Notes: generated from the sequence alone by a model not told the origin. Shown: positions 1-64,000, numbered from the stretch's first letter. The stretch is DNA of 64,000 nucleotides from an uncultured Gammaproteobacteria bacterium (GCA_964448465.1 CAYUVY010000001.1:25196-89195), one strand, 5' to 3'. A program made the numbers and translations.

Positions 1-609
1 CCAATAGATTTGCCAATTAAAAACAAGACAATTTCGAAGAGCAAACAAATATTATCAGTAGGCAGGTTTGACAACATATTAAACACCAAAAGACATGATA
101 TTTTAATTGAAGCCTTCAAGGAATTCTCTAAACATACCAAAGAATACAAGCTTATTCTTGTTGGCGGGTCGGTAGATATTAACTCACAGTATATAAATAA
201 ACTCAAGTCTTCCATCGCTAAACTGCCTGCAGAGATTAGGTTAAACGTAAACCCAAATGAGTTAATTAGTTTGTATCAATCCTCTTCTATTTACTGGCAT
301 GCCGCTGGTTTTGGTGTAGATGAAAAATCTAATCCAGAAAATACAGAACATTTTGGTATTAGCATTGTCGAAGCTATGTCTTATGGCTGTCTAGTTTTTG
401 CTCCACAAAAAGGTGGCATAAAAGAAATAATTATAGATAACAAAAATGGATTTTTTTACGACACCGTAAGAGAATTAGTAAACAAAACTCTTAAAATAAT
501 TACTCAAAAAAATCAAATTAAACTTCGCACCAATGCTATAAAAACAATTAGATTGTTTGGGAAAACACACTTTTTTAACAATTTTAAAAATATTATCAAT
601 CATGGTTAA
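1..609 (+). CDS. Glycosyltransferase family 4 (GT4), C-terminal part; gene starts upstream of window
   Basis: Reading frame is open to base 1. The C-terminal GT4 donor-binding motif EAMSYGCLVFAPQKGGIKEII (E-x7-E-like region) is present. The TTG at 10 in the track is probably internal. Confidence 0.7.
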   Translation, partial: PIDLPIKNKTISKSKQILSVGRFDNILNTKRHDILIEAFKEFSKHTKEYKLILVGGSVDINSQYINKLKSSIAKLPAEIRLNVNPNELISLYQSSSIYWHAAGFGVDEKSNPENTEHFGISIVEAMSYGCLVFAPQKGGIKEIIIDNKNGFFYDTVRELVNKTLKIITQKNQIKLRTNAIKTIRLFGKTHFFNNFKNIINHG

Positions 610-1489
610 GAAAAAAGTTAGTGTCGTTGTCACGAACTGGAATGGTGCCAATTTACTTAAAAAGAGCTTGCCAATAATATTAAAAAATAGCCCAGAAGCT
701 TCAGAAATTTTGGTGGCAGATGATGCTTCTTCAGACAATAGTCTTCAGATTGTTAAAGAATTTCAGAAGTCAGACTCTCGGATAATACTTATTAGTCACA
801 AAAAAAATCTAGGTTTTGCCAATAACTCTAACCATGCTATTTCAAAAACAAAAAATAATCTAGTGGTCCTACTAAATAACGATATTTACCCCGAACCAGA
901 TTACATCAAAAACTCTTTAATATATTTTAATGATAAAAAGTTATTTGGTGTATCATTCTGTGAAATAAATAATCCTAACTGGGCAAAAATATTTTTTAAG
1001 AATGGTTATTTTCAATATTCGGAAGGACAGTCAATCAAAGAAATACACATTACCGGATGGGTTTCCGGGGGTTCCTCGATAATAAATAAATCAATTTTTC
1101 ATAAACTAGGAGGTTTTGATAATATTTACGAACCGTTTTATTCTGAAGATTTGGACATAGGCTATCGGGCCTGGAAAAGCGGCTACCACTTACTTTGGAA
1201 TCCAACATCAAAAGTAAGTCATAAACACGAAACCACTACCTCTAAGTTTCCACGCAGGTTCCTTGACTATGTTAAGGAAAGGAACAGGTTGCTTACAGTA
1301 TACAGAAATATTACTGATGTCCAATATCTACGACACAACACTATCGCAAAATTTACCAGGATACTGTTTGGACCAAATTATTTAAAAATAATTTTAGCTG
1401 CTCAACGCCAACTCAACTCCTACCCAAAACCAGTAGTATTCCCAAAGCTTACTGACAAAGAAATTTTTGCCAAATTCGACCATGACTAA
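602..1489 (+). CDS. Glycosyltransferase family 2 (GT2)
   Basis: VSVVVTNWNGANLLKKSL...ADDASSDNS is a GT2 N-terminal Rossmann/DXD-type signature. The ATG at 602 overlaps the upstream stop (ATGGTTAA). The track ORF starts at 557. Confidence 0.8.
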   Translation: MVKKKVSVVVTNWNGANLLKKSLPIILKNSPEASEILVADDASSDNSLQIVKEFQKSDSRIILISHKKNLGFANNSNHAISKTKNNLVVLLNNDIYPEPDYIKNSLIYFNDKKLFGVSFCEINNPNWAKIFFKNGYFQYSEGQSIKEIHITGWVSGGSSIINKSIFHKLGGFDNIYEPFYSEDLDIGYRAWKSGYHLLWNPTSKVSHKHETTTSKFPRRFLDYVKERNRLLTVYRNITDVQYLRHNTIAKFTRILFGPNYLKIILAAQRQLNSYPKPVVFPKLTDKEIFAKFDHD

Positions 1490-2282
1490 ACAATATTCTA
1501 TTATTATTATTAATTACAACACTTCACAAATTACCTTAAATTGCATACAAAGTATAATTAAGTTCACTAATAATCTTGAGCATGGCGAGTTAATTGTTCT
1601 AGACAATGGGTCTACCGATGATTCTGTAGAGAAAATTAGTAAATTTAAGAACAAAAACATTCAACTGATTTTAAGTAAAGATAACCTAGGGTTTGCGCGA
1701 GGTAATAATTTAGGAGCAAAACATGCCCAAGGATCCTATCTATTTTTTTTAAATTCCGATACCCTTCTGATTAAAAACGATTTACAAAGTAACATTAGTT
1801 ATTTACACAATCATCCCACAATTGGTTTACTAGCACCCAGGCTACTTAATCAAGACTTGAGTATTCAAGACAGCTGCTTTCAAGATCAGTCTATACTTAA
1901 TGCTTTAAAATATCTTTTTGGAAACAAACAGGCAATAGGGAAATATTCTCCCAAGCAGCAAATAAAGGTTCAATACGTTGTGGGTGCAGCTATGCTTATT
2001 AGTAGAAACTTGTTTACAGACATGGGCGGGTGGAACGAAAAATACTTCATGTATTTTGAAGATCTGGACTTTTGTGACAAAGTTAGATCATTTGGCAAAC
2101 AAATAATATACAAACCAGATTGGCAAGTTATACATCTTCATGGTCAAAGTGGTATAAGTTCAAAACAACCATCCCAAAGCTATAATTTTTTAGTTCAAAG
2201 TAGTAAAACCTACCACGGTAAAATTAAATACTATCTTATGACGGGTATTCTTAAGCTGGCAAACAGACTAAACCTAAATTAA
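1482..2282 (+). CDS. Glycosyltransferase family 2 (GT2)
   Basis: YSIIIINYNTSQITLNCIQSI...LDNGSTDDS is a GT2 signature. The ATG at 1482 overlaps the preceding stop (ATGACTAA). The track ORF begins at TTG 1467. Confidence 0.8.
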   Translation: MTKQYSIIIINYNTSQITLNCIQSIIKFTNNLEHGELIVLDNGSTDDSVEKISKFKNKNIQLILSKDNLGFARGNNLGAKHAQGSYLFFLNSDTLLIKNDLQSNISYLHNHPTIGLLAPRLLNQDLSIQDSCFQDQSILNALKYLFGNKQAIGKYSPKQQIKVQYVVGAAMLISRNLFTDMGGWNEKYFMYFEDLDFCDKVRSFGKQIIYKPDWQVIHLHGQSGISSKQPSQSYNFLVQSSKTYHGKIKYYLMTGILKLANRLNLN

Positions 2283-2332: not shown

Positions 2333-4057
2333 GTGATATATATTCTGATATTTTTCATATCATTTTTTACTAAGATTTATAAGATAAATTTCGTCCCCCC
2401 AAGCCTTTTTTCCGACGAGGTAGATATTGGATATCAAGCTCAAATATTTAATAAATGTTATAGTGACTACTACGGTAATTTTTTACCAACCCATTTCCAC
2501 TCCTTTTCTGACTGGCGAACCTCCGGATATTTATATTCCACAATAATTCTTGAAAAGTTAGGTATAAATTCTGACTTATCTATTAGACTACCAGCAGCTA
2601 TTTATGGTTCTTTGTGTGTCTTACTCTTAATTCTTATCATTAATATCTCTACCAAATTAACTATTATTCAAAAAATAACCCTAGCTATCGTTTTTTCCCT
2701 AAATCCTTGGTTGTATCACTACAGTAGAACAGGTTTTGAAGTCACCGGGATGCTATTTTTTATACTATTGGGCATATTCTGGCTAATCAAGTCCTACCAC
2801 AAATTTCAAACAAAACTATTTACCATGGGATTGATTTCTTTGGTAGTTAGTACTTATTTTTACTCCACTGCTAAGTTTTTTTCGCCAGCCTTAGCTTTGA
2901 TTTTTATAATTCTAACTATAACCAAAAACAAGATTAAGATATCTAAAATACTTTTACCGATATTTATCGTATTTCTGTTTTGTATCCCACAGGTTAAAGA
3001 TATTTATCAGCAAAAATCTGGATACAGATTTTCTTATATTAGTGTTTTTTCCGATCCTTTTATCTCCAAGAAAATTGATTTTCAAAGATATTTAGATTCT
3101 TTTCCCAATGTTGAAAAGAAAGTTGGCTATCAAACCACCTTATTTGAAAAAATATTACACAACAAAATAACCAATGTTGGTCAGACCATTTTAAATAATT
3201 ACTTTAATTCATTTTCCACAAGCTTTTTAATTATCAAAGGGGACGAAAACTTACGACAGGGATTTGGAGAGTACGGTATGCTTTTGATCGTAGAATACAT
3301 ATTCTTGTTCTTGGGATTATATCTATGTTTTAAAAAAACTCCATCTTTTACTTCTAAGCTTTTTTTAGTAATTCTAATTTTAGCGCCCATACCTTCCTCT
3401 TTAACCCGAGACTCAGCCGGACCCCATGCTACCAGATTAATACTCCTTCTACCATCAATAATGTATTTTTATGGAAATAGCCTTATTTACCTATTTAATA
3501 AAAAAATATTAGTCACAATTGTCTTTATCTTATTAGCGACAAATTCCATATTTTTTTATGAATCATATTTTGTTCATTATCCAAGCATATCCGAAGAATC
3601 CTGGCACCTAGGCTTAAAAGAAGCTGTACTTTTTGCAAACAATCAACAACAAGCTAATCCACAAACTATTAATTATTACAGCAGTCAAGTTGAGTCTTTT
3701 GTTCCTTTCTTTTTGTATTACACAAAATACTCACCCGTGTTAAATAGTTGTGCTCCAGCACTAACCATTTCTTCACAAAAAATTCAAAATGAGGAGTATC
3801 TTAAAGCAGAAAATAACAACTATTTTGGTAAATTTGACTGGCAGGAGTTAATAAAACAAGACTTTGGACTTAATTCCCACTTTATACTAAGAAACTCTGA
3901 GCTAACAAATCTAAAGCAAGGGGTTGATAATTACAACAATAATTATCAACCCACAAGCAAACTAACGACAAAAATACTTTGGAAATACAACAGTCCATAT
4001 TATGAAGGCAATTATCCGCTAGTCGTAGGTCTTGATTTCATACCAAACACACAATGA
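2333..4057 (+). CDS. Polytopic membrane glycosyltransferase, GT-C fold (ArnT/PMT_2-like, GT39/GT83-like)
   Basis: 574 aa with many predicted TM helices. Acidic first-loop motif SLFSDEVDIGYQ sits shortly after the first hydrophobic segment. GTG start at 2333 is preceded by TATAAT at 2321-2326. The start codon is uncertain. Confidence 0.65.
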   Translation: MIYILIFFISFFTKIYKINFVPPSLFSDEVDIGYQAQIFNKCYSDYYGNFLPTHFHSFSDWRTSGYLYSTIILEKLGINSDLSIRLPAAIYGSLCVLLLILIINISTKLTIIQKITLAIVFSLNPWLYHYSRTGFEVTGMLFFILLGIFWLIKSYHKFQTKLFTMGLISLVVSTYFYSTAKFFSPALALIFIILTITKNKIKISKILLPIFIVFLFCIPQVKDIYQQKSGYRFSYISVFSDPFISKKIDFQRYLDSFPNVEKKVGYQTTLFEKILHNKITNVGQTILNNYFNSFSTSFLIIKGDENLRQGFGEYGMLLIVEYIFLFLGLYLCFKKTPSFTSKLFLVILILAPIPSSLTRDSAGPHATRLILLLPSIMYFYGNSLIYLFNKKILVTIVFILLATNSIFFYESYFVHYPSISEESWHLGLKEAVLFANNQQQANPQTINYYSSQVESFVPFFLYYTKYSPVLNSCAPALTISSQKIQNEEYLKAENNNYFGKFDWQELIKQDFGLNSHFILRNSELTNLKQGVDNYNNNYQPTSKLTTKILWKYNSPYYEGNYPLVVGLDFIPNTQ

Positions 4058-5646
4058 AAAAATACATCTTACTTCTTTTTTTAATAATCTTATTACCATA
4101 TTTCAAACTAATTTTACCCGGATTCCCTTCTTTACAAGATCAAATGCACCCTCTACGACTTACTGACTTGAGACAGTGTCTTTCGGATCACCAAATACCT
4201 TGCCGTTATTCTACAAAATCTGCCTTAGGTTATGGCTACCCCTTGTTTAATTTTTACGGCCAAGGTGCTTATCTTCTACCAGCATTATTCAGCTATATTT
4301 TACCCTTAAATTCCTACGATTTGATGAAAATTCAAATTATTCTTTTTGCCTGTATCGGTGGTTTGGGCATATTTTTATTAGCAAAAACCAACAAATTGGA
4401 CAACCCCACCTCGATCCTGTTTGCAACTATTTTTAGTTATACGCCATATTTTGCCTTAGATGTATATGTTCGAGGAGCAATACCTGAATTTTCCGCCTTA
4501 ATGCTCATACCATGGATCTTTCTTCTCTCTTACCAAAACAGAACTATTTTCACCAACCTCGCCCTATCCTTAATTATCTTGACCCACATTCAAACAGGTT
4601 TAATAACCTTATTAATTTACTTATTTTATCTTATATTCTCCCACAAAAACAGACAGGCTCTTCTAAGCCTTTTGACTACATTGTTACTTTGTAGTTTTTA
4701 CTTAATCCCCGTTATCTTAGAAAACAATTTGGTCCAACTGAGCTCTACAACGAAAGGCATTTTTGACTACAATATCCATTTTCTCAACTTAAAGCAAATA
4801 TTTATCTCACCTTTTTGGGGATACGGAGCCTCAACATGGCTTGACAAAGACGGTATGGGTTTTACGTTGGGAATACCTTTAATTTTTCTTATTGCTACCA
4901 GTGTGTATCTCTATTTTAAATATCAGCAAAAAAAATTACCAAGTACATTTTTACTAATTATTTCCATTCTTTTTATATTTCTGGCCCATACTCGTTCAGC
5001 TTTTATATGGAAAATATTACCACTCGGTTATTATCAATTCCCCTGGAGATTTTTAGGTCTGGCCTCAATATTCACAATTATATTTTCTATTAACATTGTC
5101 AGCAAAAGCAATCTCCAGGCAAAATCCTTACCATTATTTGGAATCATACTTATCACTATACTTATCAACGCTCCTTATTTTCGGCCAGATATGGTCTTAT
5201 CCTACGATTACTTAAATACTCCCCAAAAACAAATCGAAATATCCTTGGGTGGTATTCAAGACTATTGGCCTACTACAGCCAAATCTATTCCCACTACACC
5301 AGCTCCAAATTTATTGCTTAACCTTGGACCAAAATACTATCCAACAACAACTAGTTTTACAAGAAAAAGTAATAGCATAGAAATAAAAGCCATTAACCCA
5401 GTTAGACAAGAATTAATCATCCCCATGTCCTATTATCCCGGGTGGGAGCTATTCGTAAACAGTAATCCAACACACATCACCCTGGATTCCACTTCAGGGT
5501 TTCCTAAGATAACTTTAGATCCGGGGCAGTACCAAATAAACATGTACCTCCAGAAAACAAAAGTACAAAAATATTCTGAATACTTAAGCTTGTTAACTAT
5601 TTTTGCTTTAATTTTTATAAAGATCAAAAATGTCAAACAAGCATAA
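4054..5646 (+). CDS. Polytopic integral membrane protein, probable GT-C-like/YfhO-like glycan-modifying protein
   Basis: 530 aa and highly hydrophobic with more than 10 predicted TM segments. ATGA overlap with the upstream gene. No DE motif was seen, so assignment to GT-C is by context only. Confidence 0.5.
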   Translation: MKKYILLLFLIILLPYFKLILPGFPSLQDQMHPLRLTDLRQCLSDHQIPCRYSTKSALGYGYPLFNFYGQGAYLLPALFSYILPLNSYDLMKIQIILFACIGGLGIFLLAKTNKLDNPTSILFATIFSYTPYFALDVYVRGAIPEFSALMLIPWIFLLSYQNRTIFTNLALSLIILTHIQTGLITLLIYLFYLIFSHKNRQALLSLLTTLLLCSFYLIPVILENNLVQLSSTTKGIFDYNIHFLNLKQIFISPFWGYGASTWLDKDGMGFTLGIPLIFLIATSVYLYFKYQQKKLPSTFLLIISILFIFLAHTRSAFIWKILPLGYYQFPWRFLGLASIFTIIFSINIVSKSNLQAKSLPLFGIILITILINAPYFRPDMVLSYDYLNTPQKQIEISLGGIQDYWPTTAKSIPTTPAPNLLLNLGPKYYPTTTSFTRKSNSIEIKAINPVRQELIIPMSYYPGWELFVNSNPTHITLDSTSGFPKITLDPGQYQINMYLQKTKVQKYSEYLSLLTIFALIFIKIKNVKQA

Positions 5647-10311: not shown

Positions 10312-11099
10312 AAACCAAAAGATTCCACACCTTATCTGTCGCTATCGCCACCTACAACGAAGAAAACTTTATTGGTAGCCTACTAGACCAGATATCAAAC
10401 TGGGCAGAAGAAATTATTATTGTCGATGGCTCCTCCACTGACAAAACTCAAGAAATCATCAAAAAATATTCCAAAGTAAAAGTAATCACCACCAGCAATA
10501 AACCCATTTTTCATATTAATAAACAAATGGCCATAGATGCCTGTACACGGGATTGGGTCTTGCAGTTAGATGCCGACGAGATCCCGTCTGAAAATTTAAA
10601 AAATGAAATTGACCAGCTACTTTCCAATAAGATCATCGAAAAACAAGGCTACTGGTTAAATCGGGCCAACTATTTTTTGGGTAGGTTTCTAAAAAAAGGT
10701 GGTCAATATCCAGATCCCACCTTGCGACTTTACCAACGGGGACTGGGCAGTCTTCCTTGCAAATCAGTGCACGAACAAGCAGTAGTCCAGGGAACCACCG
10801 GGCACCTAAAAAATGATCTTTTACATTACGCCGACCGTTCATTTACACGTTATCTAACCAGACATAATCGTTATACTACCCTAATTTCCCAGGAAATTAC
10901 TAATCCAGATTTTTTTGATTATTTTATCTTAAAACCACATCTTTGGTTTTTAACTACTTACTTCCGCCACAAAGGTTTCCAAGACGGTTTCCCCGGGTTT
11001 GTTTTTTCATTTTTTTCTGCACTCAGATTTCCAATAGCTTATGTTAAATATTGGGAAAATAAAACTACCAAACACATTCAAAGCAATGACTGGCAATAA
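10308..11099 (+). CDS. Glycosyltransferase family 2 (GT2)
   Basis: LSVAIATYNEENFIGSLLDQI...IVDGSSTDKT, with the DADE acidic motif at QLDADEIP. ATGA overlap with the upstream gene. Confidence 0.8.
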   Translation: MKTKRFHTLSVAIATYNEENFIGSLLDQISNWAEEIIIVDGSSTDKTQEIIKKYSKVKVITTSNKPIFHINKQMAIDACTRDWVLQLDADEIPSENLKNEIDQLLSNKIIEKQGYWLNRANYFLGRFLKKGGQYPDPTLRLYQRGLGSLPCKSVHEQAVVQGTTGHLKNDLLHYADRSFTRYLTRHNRYTTLISQEITNPDFFDYFILKPHLWFLTTYFRHKGFQDGFPGFVFSFFSALRFPIAYVKYWENKTTKHIQSNDWQ

Positions 11100-13924: not shown

Positions 13925-13939
13925 GGTATACTGGAATTC

Positions 13940-17413: not shown

Positions 17414-17423
17414 ATAAACATCC

Positions 17424-22707: not shown

Positions 22708-22743
22708 ATAAGTTTAGTCAACAAATTAGGAAATATTATAACA

Positions 22744-26382: not shown

Positions 26383-27216
26383 ATGAACAAATTAAGATCC
26401 GTTAATCCCTCCTTCTACAACAAGGTCTATTTTAAGGGCATAAATTTTGGCAAAGTTGACCCCAGAAAAACAAGTACCTACCCAAAAAAATACTTAGAAA
26501 TACTGAATATTTGCCCAATTAAATCAACAGATAAAATTGTCGATTTTGGTTGCGGCAATGGCCTGTTAAGCCTAATATTGGCTTATAAGAAAAACATTGA
26601 AGTTATTGGTATAGATTACTCCAAAGATGCCATAACTAACTCAATTGCCGCCCAACTAGACTTTCAAAAAACACTAGGTAGAACCTTAAAACTTAAATAT
26701 CTCCAGAGAGATAACCTACATCTACCTATGTTAAAAAATATCTCCATAGTCTATCTTTCAGATGTGGTTGAACACTTATACGATGAAGAATTAACTTATA
26801 TTTTTAATATTTTTAAAACCTGGGGTAAAAAAATTACAATAATAATTCACACAGACAATTCTTATTATTTAAAATTCGTTAAACCAATTCAAGATATCTT
26901 GGCACTGATTACCAGAAAAACCAGTATAAACAAAATCCTCTATGCAAATAATCTTAATGCAAAGTATCACATAAATCTTACGAACCCCCAAAAATTTAAC
27001 AAACTAATGTTTTTGAATGGATATAAAAATATCCAAATAATATATCCTCAAACCACAAAAGAAGCAATTATTCAACAAATGGGTCAACTGTCAAATATTC
27101 CCGGTGCTTATTGGTTAATACAAAGAATATTAAAAATAGACATTTTCAAACAATTACTTTCACCAGGGTTTTACGCCGTATACGAGCACAAAAATAATAA
27201 AAAAACTGTTAGTTAA
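26383..27216 (+). CDS. Class I SAM-dependent methyltransferase
   Basis: IVDFGCGNGLLSLILA motif I and a LSDVVEHL motif. Confidence 0.65.
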   Translation: MNKLRSVNPSFYNKVYFKGINFGKVDPRKTSTYPKKYLEILNICPIKSTDKIVDFGCGNGLLSLILAYKKNIEVIGIDYSKDAITNSIAAQLDFQKTLGRTLKLKYLQRDNLHLPMLKNISIVYLSDVVEHLYDEELTYIFNIFKTWGKKITIIIHTDNSYYLKFVKPIQDILALITRKTSINKILYANNLNAKYHINLTNPQKFNKLMFLNGYKNIQIIYPQTTKEAIIQQMGQLSNIPGAYWLIQRILKIDIFKQLLSPGFYAVYEHKNNKKTVS

Positions 27217-28975
27217 TTTGTTTTAGTAAGTCTCTTGCCGGAGTAAAACCCGGATTAATATTCAATGATTGCTCGACTAGTTTTTTAGCGGAATCCCTCT
27301 TCCCTTGGGTCAGCTCATTAACTGCTTTCATATACAATCCTTGAAAATTGTTATTATCTAAACTTAACAATCGATCCAGTATCATGTCAACTAAGGGGTA
27401 ATCCTTTTCTGTGTATACAACCTGAGCCAAACTAAGATAACTTTGATATAAAGTTGGGTTTAATTTTATTGCCGTAAGGTAGCTATCTTTTGCCAGGTCT
27501 AGTCTACCCATTTTATAAAATATGTTTGCCCTATTGTGAAAGGCATCTGCATAATCAGGCTTAACCACCGTCGACTGAGTAAAACCCTTAACCGCGTTCT
27601 CATATTGTGCTAATTTATCGTAATCATCCCCAATGTTGTTCCAAGCATTATGAGAGTTAGGTGAGACCTGGCAAGTATTAACCCATAAATTATGATTGGT
27701 CTGCCAGTCAATATTTCTTAAGTAAATTCTAAAAGCAAACACACCACAAACCACAGTTAACAGAAAATAACCAAAAAGAGGCAATTTTGAGTTTAGTTTA
27801 TAAAACATTAAACCAAATATCAAACTAATCCCTAAACTACCAAAAAATACATAACGTTCAGCCACCATCCAACTTACCCTCAATGGTGACATGGCAATGC
27901 TGCTTGCCAAAAACGTAAATGCAAGGCCCCAAAATATAATTTTATTTTGTTTGGCAAAATAAAATAAACAAGCAAAATAGAGTATAAAAATCAACCAATT
28001 TAACCATACTGGATTTATAAATAAGGTGTGATATAGAGTTAAGTCAACCGGAAAAACTATCAACTGCAGATATTTTGATACTGAAGTTGGGTATTGCTCA
28101 AATGGATTATAAAAAACACTAACCGTCCCACTGTTAACTACCGTAACTCTCTCTTTAATAGCTGGAAAATAAAATGCAATCATAGTAAGAACCAGAAAAG
28201 TTACCATCAAAAAATAACTCAATTTGAGTTTCCTTGTAAATTGTCCAAACTCCCCAACTGAAAATTTTAAGAGTAGATACAAGAATATTGTGTTGGCGAC
28301 CCAAAATTTTACTGTAAAAATGCCAACAAAAAGGGCTGATATAAGGGAAATCAGATAAGTTTTACTTTTAGTTTTTTCCAAGTAGTAAAAAGACAAGACT
28401 ATCCACAAACTAGTTATAGCTAAATATAAATATGGCTTACCAGAAATCCAGGTAACTCCTTCTACGTGAACTGGTAAGACAGCGTAAATAACTAAAGATA
28501 GATTAGTAAGTTCCTTAGATTTCGTTATTAGATACAAGAAAACATAGCCTAAAACTAAGCTTGTTCCATACAAAAACAAACTAAACAGATGGTATGGCGT
28601 AGGGTTTTGATTGCCAAAAAGATGATAAAAAATATAGTAACCCACAGAAAGTAAGCTAAAATTTTCTCTAACATACGAAATATTCCCAACCTCACTATTT
28701 TGGTTCAAAGTAGCATAATCATCCGAGACAAAATTAGCGTTCATTCCGTTGGCGTATACAGCCACAACCAAAGCTAGAATAATCAACAAAAACTTCCAAT
28801 TACCCTTAATTATTTGCCAAATACTTTCCACTTTTTCTGTCTGTAAGCCCTGTACTCTTTCGGCCACAAACTCTTTAATATCATTTATGCCCGCACCTAC
28901 CTTTTTGGATAGTTCTTCAGGCGAAAGATGTGCATTTTGTAATACAAATTTACGCTTCTTTTTGCTTAAACCCAT
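27209..28975 (-). CDS. TMTC-like membrane protein: N-terminal polytopic GT-C-like domain with DD motif plus C-terminal TPR repeats
   Basis: FVSDDYATL acidic motif follows the first TM helix. More than 10 hydrophobic segments. The C-terminus carries 3-4 TPR-like repeats (AWNNIGDDYDKLAQYENAVKGF...AFHNRANIFYKMGRLDLAKDSYLTAIKLNP...). Confidence 0.6.
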   Translation of the reverse strand: MGLSKKKRKFVLQNAHLSPEELSKKVGAGINDIKEFVAERVQGLQTEKVESIWQIIKGNWKFLLIILALVVAVYANGMNANFVSDDYATLNQNSEVGNISYVRENFSLLSVGYYIFYHLFGNQNPTPYHLFSLFLYGTSLVLGYVFLYLITKSKELTNLSLVIYAVLPVHVEGVTWISGKPYLYLAITSLWIVLSFYYLEKTKSKTYLISLISALFVGIFTVKFWVANTIFLYLLLKFSVGEFGQFTRKLKLSYFLMVTFLVLTMIAFYFPAIKERVTVVNSGTVSVFYNPFEQYPTSVSKYLQLIVFPVDLTLYHTLFINPVWLNWLIFILYFACLFYFAKQNKIIFWGLAFTFLASSIAMSPLRVSWMVAERYVFFGSLGISLIFGLMFYKLNSKLPLFGYFLLTVVCGVFAFRIYLRNIDWQTNHNLWVNTCQVSPNSHNAWNNIGDDYDKLAQYENAVKGFTQSTVVKPDYADAFHNRANIFYKMGRLDLAKDSYLTAIKLNPTLYQSYLSLAQVVYTEKDYPLVDMILDRLLSLDNNNFQGLYMKAVNELTQGKRDSAKKLVEQSLNINPGFTPARDLLKQIN

Positions 28976-28995: not shown

Positions 28996-29796
28996 ATGCC
29001 TCTTGTGGTAAAAGAAATTATCAGCATATATAAGTACAGAGAATTATTGTACCAGCTCACCCTGCGCGAAATAAAGTCCCGCTACAAACAGTCCATTCTT
29101 GGCTATTTTTGGGTTATTTTTAATCCCTTGGCTCAAATGATTGTCATGAGCTATGCCTTTTCCATTATTTTAAAAGTACCCACCAACGCCACCTCCAACA
29201 TTCCTTATTCTGTTTTTTTATTTACAGCTCTTTTACCTTGGAACCTGTTTGCTAATTCTTTAACTTCAGCCTCCAATTCCTTGGTTACTAATTCCGGTTT
29301 ACTTACAAAAATATATTTCCCTCGCACTATCCTACCTATTTCTACCATTCTCGCCAAAATCGTCGATTTTCTCTTTGCTAGCCTAATCTATATTATTTAT
29401 ATGCTTTGGTACCAAATACCCATAAATTTCAATGTACTCTGGATAATTCCAATATTTTTTATCCAATTAATTTTCACCACTGGTTTATCCTTGTTCCTTA
29501 GTGCTACCAATTTACTATATCGAGACATTCAATACCTCCTAGGCTTAATCTTAACGCTATGGATCTACATCACCCCCGTCTTTTACCCTGCCGACCTAAT
29601 TCCCGCCAAAGCCAGGTTTATCTTTCAATTTAATCCCATGGCCGTGATTATCAACGCCTACCGCCAAGTTATCCTAGCCGGTGGGAACCCCAATTTCACC
29701 AGTCTTTGGATAGCTCTAGTAGTCTCTGTTACTACACTAATTTTGGCCTTAGCTTATTTTAAACAGCAAGAAAAAACCTTTGCAGACAATGTTTAA
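28996..29796 (+). CDS. wzm: ABC-2 type polysaccharide/teichoic-acid exporter permease
   Basis: YKYRELLYQLTLREIKSRYKQSILGYFWVIFNPLAQM is a classic Wzm/TagG N-terminal signature. Six predicted TM segments. Confidence 0.8.
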   Translation: MPLVVKEIISIYKYRELLYQLTLREIKSRYKQSILGYFWVIFNPLAQMIVMSYAFSIILKVPTNATSNIPYSVFLFTALLPWNLFANSLTSASNSLVTNSGLLTKIYFPRTILPISTILAKIVDFLFASLIYIIYMLWYQIPINFNVLWIIPIFFIQLIFTTGLSLFLSATNLLYRDIQYLLGLILTLWIYITPVFYPADLIPAKARFIFQFNPMAVIINAYRQVILAGGNPNFTSLWIALVVSVTTLILALAYFKQQEKTFADNV

Positions 29797-30529
29797 TCCA
29801 ACCCCCATCATCCAATTTAAAAACGTAACCAAGAAGTTCTCCTTTAACAAGCAGAAAACCTTCAAAGAATTTATCCCGGCCCTACTAGGTCAGCAAGAAA
29901 CCAAAACTATGTTTACAGCTCTAGATAACATCAGCTTCGAAGTATATCCTGGTGAAACCGTAGGAATAATTGGCCCCAACGGTAGTGGCAAGTCTACTAT
30001 CTTAAAACTAATTGCCAACGTCACTAGTCCCACCTCGGGAGAAGTTATTGTCAACGGCCGAGTCTCGCCATTAATTGAACTGGGGGCGGGCTTTCATCCA
30101 GATCTAACTGGGCGCGAAAATATATTTTTAAACGGCAGCATTCTTGGCCTAACTCAAAAGGAAATAAAGCACAATTACAAAAGTATTGTCGACTTTGCCG
30201 AGCTTGCCGAATTTATTGACCAGCCAGTCAAGCACTACAGTTCTGGCATGTATATGCGCCTAGCCTTTGCTGTGGCTGTACACACTAACCCACAAATCCT
30301 CCTGGTCGACGAAATCCTAGCAGTAGGGGACTCCACCTACCAAGCCAAATGCTTTAAAAAAATGGAAGAGTTCAAAAAATCCGGCGTAACTATCATCTTC
30401 GTCTCCCATTCTTTATCTTCTATTAGAAATTTTTGTGATAAAACAATATCTCTTAGCAAAGCAACAATAAAATATCAAGGTAAGACAGCCGATGTCCTAA
30501 ACAAAACAACAAGTCATGAACAAAGTTAA
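29780..30529 (+). CDS. wzt: ABC transporter ATP-binding protein, short form (no C-terminal glycan-binding domain)
   Basis: Walker A GPNGSGKST, signature YSSGMYMRLAFA, and Walker B LLVDEILAVGD. Confidence 0.85.
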   Translation: MQTMFNPTPIIQFKNVTKKFSFNKQKTFKEFIPALLGQQETKTMFTALDNISFEVYPGETVGIIGPNGSGKSTILKLIANVTSPTSGEVIVNGRVSPLIELGAGFHPDLTGRENIFLNGSILGLTQKEIKHNYKSIVDFAELAEFIDQPVKHYSSGMYMRLAFAVAVHTNPQILLVDEILAVGDSTYQAKCFKKMEEFKKSGVTIIFVSHSLSSIRNFCDKTISLSKATIKYQGKTADVLNKTTSHEQS

Positions 30530-49077: not shown

Positions 49078-50007
49078 CTATCTAACAAGCAGCAACGGCA
49101 GGCCTACTAATTGGCTTATTAAACCAATTACCCCACTAACTCCAGATACCAACACGGCTTTGTGAGGATCCACTCCAACTTGAGAAAAAAAGTATCCATA
49201 CAATAATTCCCTAGCTCCCCAGCCAGAAAGTGAAATTGGCAGTACCAAGATAAAAGAAATTATTGGGAAAATTGAGTAAATACTGGCCAAACTCATATTT
49301 GCCTGCAAAATAACTGCCAAAAAATAATTTGGTAAGATCCAAACTAGTTGAGCAAAAATAGAGATAACATATGCCCCTGCAACCCTGGATAAACCCTCTT
49401 GATTTAATACTTCTTCTATAGATACTATTTTTTGTAACCACTTAATTTTTAGGGCATATTTTTTTAAATCCAATAAATACGCCAAGCCAATTGCCACCCA
49501 CATCCCCACAAACAACCCCAGACAGATAAAAACAATATTGGCAGGCAAGCTTAGTCCTACAACTTTTGCCAAAACAATCCCAATAAAGGCCACGGTTACC
49601 AATGAAACTAGTCCTACTAATCTATCGGCCACCATGGACATGGCCAGTTGTGATTTTTTCAGTTCCGGAAAACTTTTATGTAGTATTAACCACTTGGTCA
49701 CATCCCCACTTAAACTGCCAGGTAAAAACATTCCATAAAAACCCGCCATCGCATTGGCCTTCCAAATTAGCCACAGTCTTTTTGGATCTATCTTTCCCCA
49801 TAACAACCAAGACCAGCGCACTCCCGCCAAAACTCCTACCACTTGAGAATAAATAACAAACATTGGTATTGTCCACCAGGGAATTAAACTAATTTGACCA
49901 ATAATTTCACTAAAACTTATTTTCGTGGAAAGTAAATACACACAACCCAACGTAAACACTAGTCGGAAAGGCAAGGAAGTTATAATTCTCTTAAGCCATG
50001 TCATCAT
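49078..50007 (-). CDS. UPF0104 / LPG-synthase-TM-like flippase-like membrane protein
   Basis: 309 aa with about 8 TM segments. N-terminus LVFTLGCVYLLSTKISFSEI...WWTIPMFVIYSQVVGVLAGVRWSWLL resembles the lysylphosphatidylglycerol synthase TM (flippase-like) domain. Assignment is by architecture. Confidence 0.5.
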   Translation of the reverse strand: MMTWLKRIITSLPFRLVFTLGCVYLLSTKISFSEIIGQISLIPWWTIPMFVIYSQVVGVLAGVRWSWLLWGKIDPKRLWLIWKANAMAGFYGMFLPGSLSGDVTKWLILHKSFPELKKSQLAMSMVADRLVGLVSLVTVAFIGIVLAKVVGLSLPANIVFICLGLFVGMWVAIGLAYLLDLKKYALKIKWLQKIVSIEEVLNQEGLSRVAGAYVISIFAQLVWILPNYFLAVILQANMSLASIYSIFPIISFILVLPISLSGWGARELLYGYFFSQVGVDPHKAVLVSGVSGVIGLISQLVGLPLLLVR

Positions 50008-51081
50008 CTTTATATTCTATCCTATGTTTGTCTCATATTTTCCCCCCGGCTGTCGACGGTGGTTCCCAGATTATTTTCAACCTAGGTAAGCAACTAGAAA
50101 AACATGGTCACCAGGTCACCTATTTCGCAGGTCCAGGTCAGAGTACCGACGATTATCTAAACTCATTTTCTAGATATCTAAAATTTATCCCCATTCTTGG
50201 ACCTATTCTAAAAATCGGACCAATTTTCTCACCCCTAACTTTATTCAAACTAACCAGACTTAAGCCTCAAATTATCTTAGCTGGACCCTTACCCACCACC
50301 ATTGCCCTATATGCATATCTACTTAAGCTGCTAACTGGAGCCAAATTAATTCTTGTGCCTTGCTACCATCCTACTGATCCAAGTTTTAATAACCCAATCT
50401 TTACCTATATTCTCCGAAACTCCAATTTAGTGATAACTCTAACTAACTACGAAACTTACTTCAAACTTCAAACTGTCAAGTTCTACCTCCTGGTATTAAT
50501 GCTGATTTGATACTAAAAAGTAAGCCTAGCTTTCCCAAAACTAAAAATGTTTTGTTTCTTGGTAATTTTGCCGCTCACAAACAAATAATCTTGCTAATTC
50601 AAGCTTTTTGTAAATTAAAAGCACCCTGTACTCTCACTATTGCGGGCAAAAAAACCTTGTATTATCCTGAAATTCAAAAATATCTCCACAACTTACCCAA
50701 ACCAATTCAAACCAAAATTACTTTCATCGACATGGGCTATAATCCTGATTTACTTGTTAACTTGTTAAACTCTTGTACTATCATGTGCCTTCCTTCTTCT
50801 CAAGAAAGCTTTGTATAGTTTTTGCCGAAGCTTGGGCCAGAGGTAAGCCAGTAGTGGGTACCGATATTCCCGCAGTTACCGAACTTTTCCAACAAACCAA
50901 AGGTGGCACAACCTTTAAAAATCTTGATTCCCAATCGCTAACTCAAACCCTAGAAAAACTATTAACAAACCCACAATTCTGCCAAAAACTTGGTCAAAAT
51001 GGTCATAAGTATGTACGACAACAACTCACTTGGGATAAAATTGGTAACCAACTATGCGCTATTTTGCCATCCTTATTTTAA
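49998..51081 (+). pseudogene. Frameshifted GT4 glycosyltransferase, split over three frames (49998-50510, 50507-50818, 50773-51081)
   Basis: Three consecutive ORFs encode the N-domain (VDGGSQIIFNLGKQLEKHGHQV), the middle (PPGINADLILKSKPSFPKTKNVLFLGNF, readable only in the second frame) and the C-domain (FAEAWARGKPVVGTDIPAV) of one GT4. Single-base frame changes are near 50465 and 50813. Confidence 0.6.
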
Positions 51082-55186: not shown

Positions 55187-55187
55187 C

Positions 55188-62604: not shown

Positions 62605-63640
62605 GGTAGCTATTTTTTACGATTGGCTTACTCGTTGGGGCGGAGCCGAACAGGTGCTACTCGACCTACTAAAACTATTTCCACAAGCCGAACTTATCAC
62701 TACAATTTATGACCCAACAAAAACTAGTTGGCTACCTAAAGGTCACAAAATAATTACCACTCCGTTATCTCACCCTAGCCTAGAGAAATTTCAAGGTTTA
62801 CTTTCCCCATTTTATCCAATTTTTTTGGAAAAGATTGACACCCGCTCTTATGACTTGGTTATAAGTTTAAGTTCCGTCTTTGGTCATTGCTTTTTAACTC
62901 AACCACAAACCAAATATATTCACTACTGCCTGACACCCAATCGTCATCTTTATCAAAAAAACAGGTTTAAACTATACCAACAGATAGATCAAATATTTGC
63001 CCAAAGACCTGATTATGTCCTTGCCACTAGTGTAGAAGTTGCCAAAAGAATTAAAAAATATCACCATCGCGACAGTCAAGTAATTTACCCAGGTATAGAT
63101 TCCAACTTTTTCAAACCAAATAAAAATATTAAAAAACAAAAACAATACTTAATAGTTTCAAGGTTAGTTCCGTATAAAAACATAGATCTTGCTATCCAGG
63201 CCTGTGGCCAACTAAACAAAAAGCTAATTATTGTTGGACAAGGAAGACTGGCCACATATCTAAAATCTCTTGCCACTAATTACAAAAATATATACTTTAA
63301 ATCCGACGTCCAGCCCGCAGAATTAAAAAAACTTTATCAACAATCTATCGCGCTTTTGGCTCCTCAAATTGAGGACTTTGGTCTAGCTATTGTCGAATCT
63401 CAAGCCTGTGGGACACCAGTTATTAGCTTAGCCCAAGGTGGAGCGCTAGAAACTGTAGAACACCAGCAAACTGGCTACCTTTATCCAGATTCAGACATTA
63501 ATAGTTTAAAAGAAGCTATTTTAAATTTTGAAAGATTAAAACTAAACTCAAAAATAATTCGCAACAATTCACTAAGATTCTCCAAACATATATTCATGCT
63601 AAAATTTAGACAATATCTAAACCAATGCTTAAAACCTTAG
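62579..63640 (+). CDS. Glycosyltransferase family 4 (GT4)
   Basis: EDFGLAIVESQACGTPVISLAQGGALETV. Confidence 0.8.
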   Translation: MTTSFSKLKVAIFYDWLTRWGGAEQVLLDLLKLFPQAELITTIYDPTKTSWLPKGHKIITTPLSHPSLEKFQGLLSPFYPIFLEKIDTRSYDLVISLSSVFGHCFLTQPQTKYIHYCLTPNRHLYQKNRFKLYQQIDQIFAQRPDYVLATSVEVAKRIKKYHHRDSQVIYPGIDSNFFKPNKNIKKQKQYLIVSRLVPYKNIDLAIQACGQLNKKLIIVGQGRLATYLKSLATNYKNIYFKSDVQPAELKKLYQQSIALLAPQIEDFGLAIVESQACGTPVISLAQGGALETVEHQQTGYLYPDSDINSLKEAILNFERLKLNSKIIRNNSLRFSKHIFMLKFRQYLNQCLKP

Positions 63641-64000
63641 ACACAATAATTTTTGAAACTTTTAAAAGAACTGTAGACATTCTGGGAGGAATTTTTTTAA
63701 TGATTCTTTTCTCACCCATTATTTTGGTTATCAGTCTTTTGGTTAAATTTACTTCCAAAGGCCCTATCTTTTTTAGTCAAATTAGAGTAGGCAAAGACAG
63801 TAAACCTTTTAAGATGTTCAAGTTTCGTACCATGTATACCGGAGACAACGACCTACGCCTTAAAAAATATCCGGAATTGTACAAAAAATACAAAAAGAAC
63901 GGCTGGAAACTATCTTTAAGAGAAGATCCACGACTTACCCAGATTGGTAAAATTATCCGCGCATTATCTCTTGATGAATTTCCTCAGTTTTACAATGTTC
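63625..64000 (+). CDS. Polyprenyl-phosphate hexose-1-phosphate transferase, small PglC/WbaP-C-terminal type (bacterial sugar transferase family); 3' end outside window
   Basis: Own translation from ATG 63625: MLKTLDTIIFETFKRTVDILGGIFLMILFSPIILVISLLVKFTSKGPIFFSQIRVGKDSKPFKMFKFRTMYTG... The KFRTM and GPIFF.Q.R.G motifs are hallmarks of the Bac_transf family. It is absent from the supplied track, presumably because no stop lies inside the window. Confidence 0.7.
   Translation, partial: MLKTLDTIIFETFKRTVDILGGIFLMILFSPIILVISLLVKFTSKGPIFFSQIRVGKDSKPFKMFKFRTMYTGDNDLRLKKYPELYKKYKKNGWKLSLREDPRLTQIGKIIRALSLDEFPQFYNV

Follow-up and report, generated by a model that had tools for sequence, protein, structure and literature searches.

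An approximately 80-kb chromosomal gene block with a probable role in cell-envelope glycopolymer synthesis in a bacterium placed near Candidatus Shapirobacteria

Introduction

Loci for rhamnose-rich cell wall polysaccharides span a few tens of kb. In streptococci, lactococci and enterococci, where they are known as rgp, gac, cwps or epa, they combine the export of one chain by an ABC transporter, Wzx-dependent flipping of a second chain, extracytoplasmic glycosylation by GT-A and GT-C enzymes and anchoring by LytR-CpsA-Psr (LCP) ligases (PMC9574508). Here, we describe a stretch of 64,000 nucleotides (GCA_964448465.1, CAYUVY010000001.1:25196-89195; the window), which was deposited under the name of an uncultured Gammaproteobacteria bacterium. 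With a probability of roughly 0.6, the window forms the central part of a chromosomal block, native to its genome, that spans about 80 kb, holds about 76 genes and serves the synthesis of cell-envelope glycopolymers; its three conserved modules lie side by side, and its host is a member of the Microgenomates near Candidatus (Ca.) Shapirobacteria.

Genes for all component types of the rhamnose-rich wall loci are present here: deoxysugar genes, glycosyltransferases (GTs) of families 2 and 4 (GT2, GT4) for assembly on a lipid carrier, a Wzm/Wzt-type exporter, a Wzx flippase as for a second chain, a GtrB-like GT-A enzyme with GT-C enzymes for decoration, and, outside the block, a candidate LCP ligase, which in the rhamnose-rich systems may likewise be encoded elsewhere. 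The rhamnose-rich systems, however, possess few GT-C enzymes each (PMC9574508), whereas about 12 GT-C-type proteins are encoded in the block described here. In addition, neither RmlC and RmlD equivalogs nor an initiator of the TagO/WecA/RgpG type were found in the 92.7 kb examined; in place of such an initiator, the block carries a phosphoglycosyltransferase (PGT) of the Bac_transf family. Branches for a CDP-dideoxyhexose and a GDP-sugar, five methyltransferases, a B12-binding radical-SAM enzyme, a GT17 and a membrane-bound O-acyltransferase (MBOAT) with an AlgX-like partner come in addition, and the host belongs to the Candidate Phyla Radiation (CPR, or Patescibacteria).

Three further systems share parts of this inventory. 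The genes for mycobacterial and corynebacterial arabinogalactan, lipomannan (LM) and lipoarabinomannan (LAM) are spread over several loci of a genome several times larger. Common features would be the many GT-C enzymes that use polyprenyl-phosphate sugars and the attachment by LCP proteins; moreover, the mycobacterial galactan exporter Wzm/Wzt (RfbD/RfbE) is the best NCBIfam match of the permease found here, an enzyme resembling GT87/PimE is also encoded, and the fold matches of one polytopic protein include the mycobacterial-type AftA, AftD, EmbC and PimE. In contrast to these systems, orthologues of Emb, Aft, GlfT or DprE could not be recognised in the block, and 6-deoxy and 3,6-dideoxy hexoses are implied. 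The Leptospira rfb locus, with a length of tens of kb to about 100 kb, serves lipopolysaccharide synthesis in a diderm of about 4-5 Mb genome size; it likewise brings together dozens of glycan genes without interruption, among them several nucleotide-sugar pathways and many GTs. It is reportedly exchanged horizontally between serovars (PMC9736851), whereas our block, found in a presumed monoderm whose genome would measure about 1 Mb, keeps its synteny in relatives, has a native composition and contains far more GT-C enzymes. The slg clusters of Geobacillus and Paenibacillus and the streptococcal Pgf system are generally described as having an ABC route, rml genes, methyltransferases, a transferase with a Wzy_C domain, a PgfS-like GT2 and GT-C enzymes, all of which have likenesses here; the differences are a far greater scale, the lack of a target protein gene nearby and matches that all stay below the family cut-offs.

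CPR genomes have already attracted notice for their many GTs in proportion to genome size: the Microgenomates genome Ch65 (801,504 bp) encodes 29 GT genes in total (PMC7143001), and 20 are known from Ca. Parcunitrobacter (PMC5220378). The single block analysed here, with 31 Leloir-type and about 12 GT-C-type enzymes, surpasses both whole-genome counts. No clustered glycan arrangement of this kind was found for the CPR in the literature, the coverage of which was partial, making this weak evidence. All enzyme classes are known and no new enzymology is implied; the scale and the CPR setting are unusual.

Extent and contiguity of the block

Positions refer to the window; negative numbers lie upstream of its start and were read from overlapping flanking contigs, and labels beginning with L denote contigs from separate sequencing runs or related genomes. 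Including the flanks, 92.7 kb were examined. Every open reading frame (ORF) of the window was scanned against Pfam and selected ones against NCBIfam, and scores were judged against the family cut-offs. For the gene count, five ORFs nested in larger genes were removed, and starts were taken from independent gene calls. Genes are named by their first position in Table 1.

The left flank (L111) encodes, in this order, a release factor, an LCP ligase, a methyltransferase, FtsE, FtsX, an M23 peptidase and a small CLIPPER-domain protein, after which the glycan genes begin at -13494. In the right flank (L087), the gene of the priming enzyme ends at 64272 and that of a DUF4012 protein at 66261; RecO, ClpP, an aminoacyl-tRNA synthetase, RsmH, a Mur ligase, MraY and MurG follow. 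Since the flanking contigs fix the ends at -13494 and 66261, the block comprises about 79.8 kb and about 76 genes (about -13.5 kb to +66.3 kb). The initial annotation had proposed that the glycan genes run off both window ends and far exceed the usual 15-25 kb of an O-antigen or capsule locus; indeed, they continue for about 13.5 kb to the left and about 2.3 kb to the right. The block is thus sandwiched between the LCP, FtsE, FtsX and M23 peptidase genes directly to the left (-19025 to -14166; L111, 38-4897) and wall genes of the dcw cluster directly to the right.

The window itself holds 62 genes with a coding density of 98.9%. Pfam assigns 14 GT2, 11 GT4 and one GT17, in agreement with the approximate counts from the bare sequence, although one GT4 is a pseudogene split into three ORFs (49998-51081); another (1-609) is cut by the window start. 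Also as annotated, five S-adenosylmethionine (SAM)-dependent methyltransferases, three acyl transfer systems (the MBOAT with its AlgX-like SGNH partner and two hexapeptide-repeat acetyltransferases), an ABC exporter and a priming enzyme were all found by Pfam, so that enzymes for methyl and acetyl decoration are present. Ten polytopic membrane proteins and one B12-binding radical-SAM enzyme were counted in addition. The remaining genes are a five-gene CDP-sugar operon, those for RmlA, RmlB, Gmd and a fusion of a short-chain dehydrogenase/reductase (SDR) with a GFO/IDH/MocA oxidoreductase, an LPG_synthase_TM protein, a DUF192 protein, two small uncharacterised proteins, Wzm/Wzt and the Bac_transf primer, which is cut by the window end. 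The Pfam scan of all ORFs bore out the dedication of the region to glycans and glycoconjugates: no housekeeping family was matched among the window ORFs, and neither a tRNA nor an Rfam family was detected in the window. For the whole block, the census comes to 19 GT2, 11 GT4, one GT17, about 12 GT-C-type proteins, one Wzy_C-like protein and one primer, i.e., 31 Leloir-type and about 12 GT-C-type, together about 43 glycosyl-transfer enzymes.

The joining of glycan loci from different organisms during assembly, a general risk of metagenomes, was considered as a trivial explanation, and a rise of the GC content from about 0.33 to about 0.38-0.41 beyond 46 kb would fit it. Exact-protein look-ups, however, led to contigs from many independent sequencing runs and one NCBI metagenome-assembled genome (MAG), and BLASTN shows overlaps among these contigs at 99.5-100% identity over the entire length of the window; two variants (L002, L003) reach 98.2-98.4% identity. 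Contigs from separate SRA runs span every junction, including the stretch from 44.7 to 52.7 kb where the GC content shifts, and the last tiling gap (10424-23413) is covered by L137. Furthermore, the right flank shares the higher GC content (0.376), and the G/C skew is uniform over the window. A chimera, which the initial annotation had named as a caveat, was ruled out on the grounds of this tiling by independent assemblies at 98.2-100% identity and of the uniform skew, and an artefact is extremely unlikely.

Taxonomic placement and native origin

The source appears to be a member of the Microgenomates close to Ca. Shapirobacteria. This placement is based on the names of the homologue sources and on the strong G/C strand bias. 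Ca. Shapirobacteria proteins match the GT87-like protein encoded upstream of the window at 71% identity and the 576-aa protein 35039 at 67% and 58%. The sources named for homologues of 4054 are the Microgenomates group, Blackburnbacteria and Amesbacteria; Gmd shares 77% identity with a protein of a Ca. Amesbacteria MAG, and Woesebacteria are also among the names. The plus strand contains 14.4% G and 20.8% C, corresponding to a G/C skew of -0.18, and the skew is negative in gene blocks of either strand. After common orientation, the related contigs L132, L134 and L135 show a skew of matching sign. A one-directional G/C strand disparity has been published for the Microgenomates order UBA1400, the complete genomes of which comprise 0.80-1.09 Mb (PMC7143001). 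The organism is presumed to be a monoderm. CPR bacteria have been inferred to be without a Gram-negative envelope (PMC6744442), and neither lpx nor waa genes were found in the 92.7 kb examined.

Comparison with related genomes, which had been suggested as a check of the initial annotation, showed that the region is conserved as three modules. The left part, from FtsEX and the M23 peptidase through the GT2 gene 1482, has the same gene order in L116, L118, L121, L117 and L126, where each gene has its counterpart and protein identities are 40-70%, and one more contig holds homologues of 2333, 4054 and 5630. The middle part recurs at 35-80% identity in two Ca. Shapirobacteria contigs, L132 and L134 (564 and 574 kb), with the following values: Wzm 66%, Wzt 65%, the 474-aa GT2 44-51%, the 406-aa GT4 44-50%, the 576-aa protein 58-67%, MBOAT 72-80%, the AlgX-like protein 60-65%, the GtrB-like GT2 66%, the DUF2079 protein 35%, the acetyltransferase 54% and the SDR-GFO fusion 41%. 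The right part recurs gene for gene at 44-64% identity, with only 31% for LPG_synthase_TM, in the JGI contig L135. There, the order is LPG_synthase_TM, GT4, DUF192, GT2, GT4, GT4, acetyltransferase, small membrane protein, GT2, Wzy_C-like protein, GT4, GT2, GT4, GT4, primer, DUF4012 and RecO, and this stand-alone module of about 19 kb lies next to MetK, which precedes it. With L007, the Ca. Amesbacteria genome that holds the nearest Gmd match, Gmd alone is shared.

The relatives' loci carry small insertions of the selfish or defence type (L132, 18662-20376; L135, 13557-14750), which encode Fic/RhuM, a 23S rRNA intervening-sequence protein, a nucleotidyltransferase/HepT toxin-antitoxin pair and a GIY-YIG nuclease; the window is free of them.

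Glycan loci are often flexible, and a strain-variable, horizontally acquired island kept diverse by phage or host pressure could be proposed, comparable to the hypervariable regions found in streamlined marine bacteria. In accordance with this, toxin-antitoxin, Fic and GIY-YIG genes are inserted in the versions of the relatives, the orthologues of the tandem GT-C genes (2333-7243) in L129 are only 33-48% identical, 57984 and the GT17 gene are without counterparts in the relatives examined, one GT4 gene is decaying, and the nearest relative of Gmd (77%) lies in an Amesbacteria MAG without surrounding synteny. However, the GC content of the block (0.352) is like that of its flanks (0.363 and 0.376), as is the G/C skew; the backbone order of all three modules is maintained in several related genomes; conspecific contigs from many runs are 98.2-100% identical with the same gene content; and no integrase, transposase or tRNA was found at the block borders. 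On composition and synteny, an imported island was rejected; for the block as a whole this explanation is largely refuted and very unlikely, and the term "island" of the initial annotation, in the sense of a strain-variable or imported region, does not hold. As the GC content matches the flanks and the three sub-modules are syntenic in relatives, the block is better described as native. It appears to be an old, vertically inherited feature of the lineage built of modules able to stand alone, to which the GT17 gene, 57984 and the tandem GT-C array were probably added in this lineage.

Table 1. Annotated features of the window and of the adjoining left part of the block, with the matches that support each assignment.
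Feature	Position	Strand	Support
GT2, then PMT_2 (469 aa), GT2, 508-aa membrane protein, GT87-like	from -13494, left of window		Order in L111
After GT87-like: 530-aa paralogue of 4054, MOP/Wzx flippase, 531-aa membrane protein, three GT2, window-cut GT4	left of window		L111
Putative GT-C-type paralogue of 4054, 530 aa	-7744		
MOP/Wzx flippase	-6186 to -4741		
GT4, 3' part (full -467 to 609, 358 aa)	1..609	+	Pfam Glycos_transf_1 6.6e-24; full gene in L093/L098
GT2, 295 aa	602..1489	+	Pfam Glycos_transf_2 1.3e-21; orthologues 52-61% in L116, L121, L129
GT2, 266 aa	1482..2282	+	Pfam Glycos_transf_2 1.1e-21
GT-C-type, PMT_2-like paralogue, 574 aa, 9 hydropathy peaks	2333..4057	+	BLASTP 28.6% to 7233-8750, E 5e-37; invariant D-E motif
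GT-C-type, PTPS_related/YfhO-like, 530 aa	4054..5646	+	Domains PF10131, PF09586, PF13231 on homologues, some named GT39
GT-C-type, PMT_2-like paralogue, 537 aa	5630..7243	+	BLASTP to 7233 E 6e-33, to 8722 E 3e-32; weak Agl23 TIGR03663 27.5 bits (cut-off 126)
GT-C-type, PMT_2/PMT, 505 aa	7233..8750	+	Pfam PMT_2 29.5 bits (cut-off 26.1), PMT 26.3 (cut-off 22.7)
GT-C-type, PMT-like paralogue, 529 aa	8722..10311	+	Pfam PMT 22.5 bits (cut-off 22.7); 32% to 7233, E 2e-55
GT2, 263 aa	10308..11099	+	Pfam 3.3e-19
GT4, 366 aa	11041..12141	+	Pfam Glycos_transf_1 9.9e-16
GT2, 268 aa	12138..12944	+	Pfam 9.9e-20
GT2 with C-terminal membrane segments, 327 aa	12941..13924	+	Pfam 4.1e-11; three hydropathy peaks, residues 233-283
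B12-binding radical-SAM enzyme, 505 aa	13940..15457	+	Pfam Radical_SAM and B12-binding; NCBIfam best HpnJ 138.8 bits (cut-off 577.6)
GT2, 335 aa	15420..16427	+	Pfam 9e-22
GT2, 329 aa	16424..17413	+	Pfam 8.3e-26
GT2 with C-terminal membrane segments, 323 aa	17424..18395	+	Pfam 3e-24; hydropathy peaks residues 247-294
Cupin, RmlC-like sugar epimerase, 150 aa	18388..18840	-	Pfam dTDP_sugar_isom 5.1e-10; NCBIfam rmlC 24 bits (cut-off 156)
SDR sugar epimerase/reductase, 306 aa	18833..19753	-	Pfam Epimerase 5.8e-33; no equivalog at cut-off
RfbH-type CDP-6-deoxy-4-keto-hexose 3-dehydrase, 411 aa	19750..20985	-	NCBIfam RfbH 620.5 bits (cut-off 423)
CDP-glucose 4,6-dehydratase-like (RfbG-like), 325 aa	20978..21955	-	NCBIfam best TIGR02622 235 bits (cut-off 278)
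Glucose-1-phosphate cytidylyltransferase-like (RfbF-like), 254 aa	21943..22707	-	NCBIfam best TIGR02623 202 bits (cut-off 300)
GT4, 371 aa	22846..23961	+	Pfam 6.4e-22
GT4, 387 aa	23963..25126	+	Pfam 8.7e-26
SAM methyltransferase, 170 aa	25155..25667	+	Pfam Methyltransf_11 6.4e-06
SAM methyltransferase, 234 aa	25667..26371	+	Pfam Methyltransf_11 1.3e-08
SAM methyltransferase, 277 aa	26383..27216	+	Pfam Methyltransf_31 7e-09
Polytopic (about 10 transmembrane segments) with C-terminal TPR, 588 aa, N-terminal domain unclassified	27209..28975	-	Pfam TPR_1 6e-14, residues 476-508
Wzm-type ABC-2 permease, 266 aa	28996..29796	+	Pfam ABC2_membrane 2.4e-18; NCBIfam best galactan exporter Wzm/RfbD, below cut-off; 66% in L132
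Wzt/TagH-type ABC ATPase, 246 aa, without C-terminal glycan-binding domain	29789..30529	+	Pfam ABC_tran 6.7e-24; NCBIfam teichoic-acid export ATPases 208-239 bits, below cut-off
GT2 with 150-aa N-terminal extension, 474 aa	30516..31940	+	Pfam 1.1e-20; 44-51% in L132, L134
GT4, 406 aa	31933..33153	+	Pfam Glyco_trans_1_4 1.5e-17; 44-50% in L132, L134
SAM methyltransferase, 262 aa	33155..33943	+	Pfam Methyltransf_11 3.4e-11
GT17, 268 aa	33991..34797	+	Pfam Glyco_transf_17 1.5e-30, 106.9 bits (cut-off 26)
Lineage-restricted polytopic protein, GT-C-like predicted fold, 576 aa	35039..36769	-	No Pfam or NCBIfam match
MBOAT membrane O-acyltransferase, 462 aa	36799..38187	+	Pfam MBOAT 5e-33; NCBIfam best DltB 165 bits (cut-off 375); 72-80% in relatives
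AlgX/AlgJ-like SGNH acyl-transfer partner, 402 aa	38187..39395	+	Pfam ALGX 1.9e-22; 60-65% in relatives
SAM methyltransferase, 239 aa	39416..40135	+	Pfam Methyltransf_23 2.7e-14
GtrB/ArnC/PgfS-like GT2, 316 aa	40146..41096	+	Pfam 1.8e-34; NCBIfam PgfS 233, ArnC 138 bits, both below cut-off; two C-terminal transmembrane peaks, residues 241, 275
DUF2079 polytopic protein, 532 aa	41122..42720	-	Pfam DUF2079 30.4 bits (cut-off 28.2); 35% in L132
Hexapeptide-repeat O-acetyltransferase, 184 aa	42722..43276	-	Pfam Hexapep 1.1e-11; NCBIfam best WcaF/LacA type
Uncharacterised protein, 152 aa	43273..43731	-	No Pfam, NCBIfam or PDB match; 188-aa gene at same place in L132
SDR epimerase/reductase and GFO/IDH/MocA oxidoreductase fusion, 633 aa	43721..45622	-	Pfam Epimerase 2.1e-25, GFO_IDH_MocA 1.8e-22; 634-aa orthologue 41% in L132
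Short GT2, 222-227 aa	45609..46292	-	Pfam 6e-19
RmlA-like glucose-1-phosphate thymidylyltransferase, short, 236 aa	46308..47018	-	NCBIfam rmlA 320 bits (cut-off 361)
RmlB dTDP-glucose 4,6-dehydratase, 340 aa	47036..48058	+	NCBIfam TIGR01181 443 bits (cut-off 365)
GDP-mannose 4,6-dehydratase (Gmd), 338 aa	48055..49071	+	Pfam GDP_Man_Dehyd 6.3e-114; NCBIfam gmd 365 bits (cut-off 415)
LPG_synthase_TM/flippase-like membrane protein, 309 aa	49078..50007	-	Pfam 1.6e-27; weak NCBIfam "flippase-like domain"; same position in L135
GT4 pseudogene, three ORF fragments	49998..51081	+	4-bp deletion near 50452 and 1-bp deletion near 50812 relative to intact 362-aa allele in L002, L003
DUF192 protein, 149 aa	51054..51503	+	Pfam 5e-25; same position in L135
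GT2, 302 aa	51500..52408	+	Pfam 1.2e-25
GT4, 370 aa	52413..53525	+	Pfam 4.1e-19
GT4, 355 aa	53510..54577	+	Pfam 1.8e-24
Hexapeptide-repeat acetyltransferase, 198 aa	54590..55186	+	Pfam 5.6e-14; 61% in L135
Small membrane protein, 178 aa	55188..55724	+	No family match; 48% orthologue at same place in L135
GT2, 296 aa	55721..56611	+	Pfam 8.3e-22
Wzy_C/O-antigen-ligase-like polytopic protein, 470 aa	56608..58020	+	Via homologues; 50% in L135
Polytopic, weakly PMT_2-like, 464 aa	57984..59378	+	Pfam PMT_2 E 0.0081; NCBIfam AZOBR_p60025 "cell surface glycopolymer formation" 32 bits, below cut-off
GT4, 401 aa	59375..60580	+	Pfam 3.7e-17
GT2, 313 aa	60561..61502	+	Pfam 1.9e-21
GT4, 369 aa	61495..62604	+	Pfam 1.2e-31
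GT4, 353 aa	62579..63640	+	Pfam 3.8e-30
Priming polyprenyl-phosphate PGT, 5' part (full to 64272, 215 aa)	63625..64000	+	Pfam Bac_transf 2.8e-31; NCBIfam EPS_sugtrans 249, WbaP 220 bits, below cut-off

Composition of the three modules

Besides many GT2, the left module (about -13.5 to 18.4 kb) contains a MOP/Wzx flippase and nine membrane enzymes of the GT-C type. The radical-SAM gene 13940 is embedded in its run of GT2 genes; the closest model is the hopanoid enzyme HpnJ, and the score lies far under the cut-off. The protein could be a C-methylase or rearranging enzyme acting on a sugar. Other radical-SAM genes are located in the middle module of the relatives (rSAM-SPASM in L132, rSAM in L134). 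Upstream of the window (about -4754 to -3096), the membrane protein of 531 aa in L093 and L098 is called with 552 aa in L095, L099 and L110, which suggests a start-site or upstream-stop polymorphism between strains.

The middle module (about 18.4-49 kb) comprises predicted genes for a CDP-dideoxyhexose, a dTDP-6-deoxyhexose and a GDP-6-deoxyhexose, Wzm/Wzt, which adjoins conserved GT2 and GT4 genes and around which the methyltransferase genes cluster, the MBOAT/AlgX pair, and the GtrB-like GT2 with the DUF2079 protein. The three nucleotide-sugar branches named in the initial annotation all exist, but each of them is incomplete when compared with the textbook pathway, and none is complete within the block. 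In the CDP branch, the RfbH assignment is unambiguous, and its two operon partners match the right families best, albeit below cut-off; an E3 reductase of the RfbI/AscD type was not found in the region. The order of the SDR-GFO fusion, the 152-aa protein and the hexapeptide acetyltransferase (42722-45622) is preserved in L132; for the dTDP branch, this arrangement may offer a short way to a modified dTDP-6-deoxyhexose that dispenses with canonical RmlC and RmlD. Next to Gmd, neither Fcl nor Rmd nor ManC was found in the block. The family of the GT17 protein is best known from the eukaryotic bisecting GlcNAc transferase; at its position, there is no counterpart in the two Shapirobacteria relatives examined. 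The 576-aa protein, MBOAT and the AlgX-like protein (35039-39395) form the most conserved trio of the block (58-80% identity) and show the same divergent arrangement in both Shapirobacteria relatives.

In the right module (about 49-66.3 kb), the primer and DUF4012 are accompanied by GT2 and GT4 enzymes, an acetyltransferase and one protein each of the Wzy_C-like and flippase-like kinds. No Wzz/PCP chain-length regulator was found, and DUF4012 takes the locus end. DUF4012 proteins are a CPR-enriched family tied to gene clusters for capsular polysaccharides and exopolysaccharides (PMC6744442). Of the parts of a possible Wzx/Wzy-type system, the PGT (63625) and the Wzy_C-like protein (56608) belong to this module, and the MOP flippase is encoded about 70 kb from the PGT. 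The broken GT4 allele (49998-51081) is also present in at least two other runs (L001, L004), and intact alleles occur only in variants that are about 1.6% divergent. Phase variation was rejected as an explanation, as the lesions lie outside any long homopolymer or repeat tract and are fixed in several runs; the gene is decaying.

Polytopic membrane enzymes

About nine GT-C/Wzy-like membrane enzymes had been counted initially. Ten polytopic proteins of 464-588 aa with 7-10 hydropathy peaks, according to a crude Kyte-Doolittle count in place of a topology predictor, are encoded in the window; for seven of them the GT-C assignment has real support, one is weakly classified, one resembles Wzy_C/O-antigen ligases, and one (27209), which carries a tail of tetratricopeptide repeats (TPR), falls into no class. 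Family models for GT-C enzymes are matched above cut-off by 7233 (PMT_2, PMT) and 41122 (DUF2079) and indirectly by 4054 via the domains of its homologues, whereas 2333, 5630, 8722, 35039, 57984 and 27209 themselves stay below or without a curated GT-C cut-off.

The proteins 2333, 5630, 7233 and 8722 are 25-32% identical in BLASTP and are old paralogues. The acidic residue pair D32-E33 near the N-terminus is invariant in their alignment, which includes the L129 orthologues, and the D-E pair of the upstream 508-aa protein aligns to it. Similarly, 4054 is a paralogue of the 530-aa gene at -7744 (29% identity, E 2e-58), and its homologues carry precomputed PTPS_related, YfhO and PMT_2 domains.

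For 35039, only 13 homologues were found among 8,000 word-sharing candidates scored from a database of 5.8 billion proteins, and the named ones come exclusively from Ca. Shapirobacteria, the Patescibacteria group or an unclassified "bacterium". An AlphaFold2 model calculated from 12 sequences reached a pLDDT of 78.6 and a pTM of 0.86, and the top seven PDB matches in Foldseek are all GT-C enzymes: ALG9 (two entries), STT3, ArnT, AftD, AftA and PglB. In hhalign, the protein matches a PMT-like profile with 86%, and 57984, which has no counterpart in the relatives examined and is absent from L135, does so with 81%. The same comparison was negative for 27209, 41122 and the 531-aa upstream protein, as was that of 27209 and the 531-aa protein with a Wzy_C profile. 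A single-sequence AlphaFold prediction of 27209 was unusable (pLDDT 48.9), and PDB sequence searches with the PMT-like profile, the Wzy_C-like profile, 27209 and 43273 returned TPR matches only and none for membrane domains. The protein 56608 does not match PF04932 at E 0.01 itself; however, 40 of its 41 aligned homologues (30-52% identical) do, the best with an E value of 1.9e-15. It could be a polymerase, a ligase or an O-oligosaccharyltransferase.

The GtrB-like GT2 (40146) is probably a polyprenyl-phosphate sugar synthase. Its gene abuts that of the DUF2079 protein 41122, the likely GT-C partner, and GT2/PMT_2 and GT2/508-aa pairs are found upstream of the window.

Proposed assembly and its alternatives

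The initial annotation envisaged one highly elaborated heteroglycan. The three export or assembly routes, namely the MOP/Wzx flippase to the left of the window, Wzm/Wzt in the middle and the PGT, Wzy_C-like protein and flippase-like LPG_synthase_TM protein on the right, as well as the separate conservation of the modules in relatives, speak against this; several polymers, or a backbone with grafted chains, would be the more economical reading compared to one repeat unit. From the gene content, we infer the following division of labour. Leloir-type enzymes (GT2, GT4 and GT17) would assemble lipid-linked chains at the cytoplasmic side of the membrane; one chain on a polyprenyl carrier would leave via the ABC transporter, and a second would be flipped by the Wzx-type flippase. 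Outside the membrane, the GT-C enzymes may extend, branch or join the chains using polyprenyl-phosphate sugars supplied by the GtrB-like GT2. The chains would also be methylated and O-acylated, the latter outside the membrane by the MBOAT/AlgX pair. As the final step, the polymers would most likely be fixed to peptidoglycan by the LCP ligase (-19025 to -18015), which is encoded 4.5 kb to the left of the block.

Several observations weigh against this proposal of cell-envelope glycopolymers. The LCP gene, for which Pfam LytR_cpsA_psr is also listed and which reaches 48.5 bits with the NCBIfam LCP-domain model (cut-off 62.3), is split from the block by FtsEX and the M23 peptidase. No TagO/WecA/RgpG-type initiator was found in the 92.7 kb examined, where the sole PF00953 protein is MraY of the dcw cluster, and neither RmlC nor RmlD was detected above cut-off; a rhamnan-type backbone is therefore unsupported. 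No GtrA-family small flippase (PF04138) was matched among the window ORFs; candidates for this role are the Wzx flippase and the LPG_synthase_TM protein. The Foldseek scores of 35039 are weak (E 4e-3 to 0.1, TM 0.24-0.40), and 27209, 57984 and the 531-aa upstream protein are unclassified or weakly classified. The block would account for roughly 7-10% of the chromosome if the genome were about the size of related complete genomes (about 1 Mb), a share based on the sizes of these relatives. Finally, the polymers are a predicted product, and their acceptor may be peptidoglycan, protein or lipid.

With regard to the acceptor, lipid-built chains might be transferred to S-layer proteins, pilins or other surface proteins by Wzy_C-like and/or PMT-like enzymes, as in slg or Pgf systems. 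O-oligosaccharyltransferases such as PglL, PilO and WsaB carry a Wzy_C domain, and a protein of this family is present in the block, as are four PMT/PMT_2-like paralogues. Among the NCBIfam models, 40146 matches PgfS best, a GT2 from a protein-glycosylation system of streptococci, and the ABC exporter and methyltransferases resemble those for methyl-capped S-layer glycans. However, no gene for an S-layer protein, pilin or other obvious target was found in the 92.7 kb examined, the PgfS and PMT matches are all below or barely at the cut-offs, and the Wzy_C fold cannot separate polymerases, ligases and O-oligosaccharyltransferases. Protein O-glycosylation is considered unlikely.

The number of GT-C enzymes also brings to mind membrane-anchored lipoglycans or glycolipids of the LM/LAM or glycosylated lipoteichoic acid type, assembled outside from polyprenyl-phosphate sugars. 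Such an activity would agree with the GT87-like (PimE-type) protein to the left of the window (71% conserved across Shapirobacteria), the roughly 12 GT-C-type enzymes with several short GT2 adjoining them, the YfhO-type domains in 4054 homologues, DltB as the best match of the MBOAT protein, and AftA, AftD, EmbC and PimE among the fold matches of 35039. Yet LtaS and genes related to glycerol phosphate, ribitol phosphate or phosphatidylinositol are missing from the region, and DltA, DltC and DltD are absent, which makes D-alanylation unlikely; moreover, the PGT and the ABC/TagH-like exporter point to polyprenyl-diphosphate-linked polymers. Lipoglycan synthesis is distinctly unlikely; nevertheless, it and protein O-glycosylation are live alternatives and may coexist with the wall polymers that we favour.

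Implications for the biology of the CPR

In a more far-reaching proposal, for which we see rather little chance, the block would be, in Shapirobacteria-type CPR bacteria, a dedicated factory for a not yet described class of envelope polymer. The block would take up about 7-10% of a genome of about 1 Mb. Most of the polymer assembly would take place outside the membrane through about a dozen divergent GT-C enzymes, among them one from a family nearly confined to this lineage and always paired with MBOAT/AlgX, and the polymers would form the main cell surface and serve in host attachment.

CPR bacteria, in which most biosynthetic pathways have been lost, probably live attached to other cells, and their surface chemistry is barely charted. 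In one place, about 80 kb encode about 43 glycosyl-transfer enzymes together with three deoxysugar routes and enzymes for methyl and acyl decoration, which suggests that the glycan coat is among the largest biosynthetic investments of the organism. The conserved three-module layout offers targets for comparative genomics, metatranscriptomics and, as soon as enrichments are available, glycan chemistry, namely the 576-aa GT-C-like protein with its MBOAT/AlgX neighbours, the tandem array of PMT-like genes and the RfbH branch.

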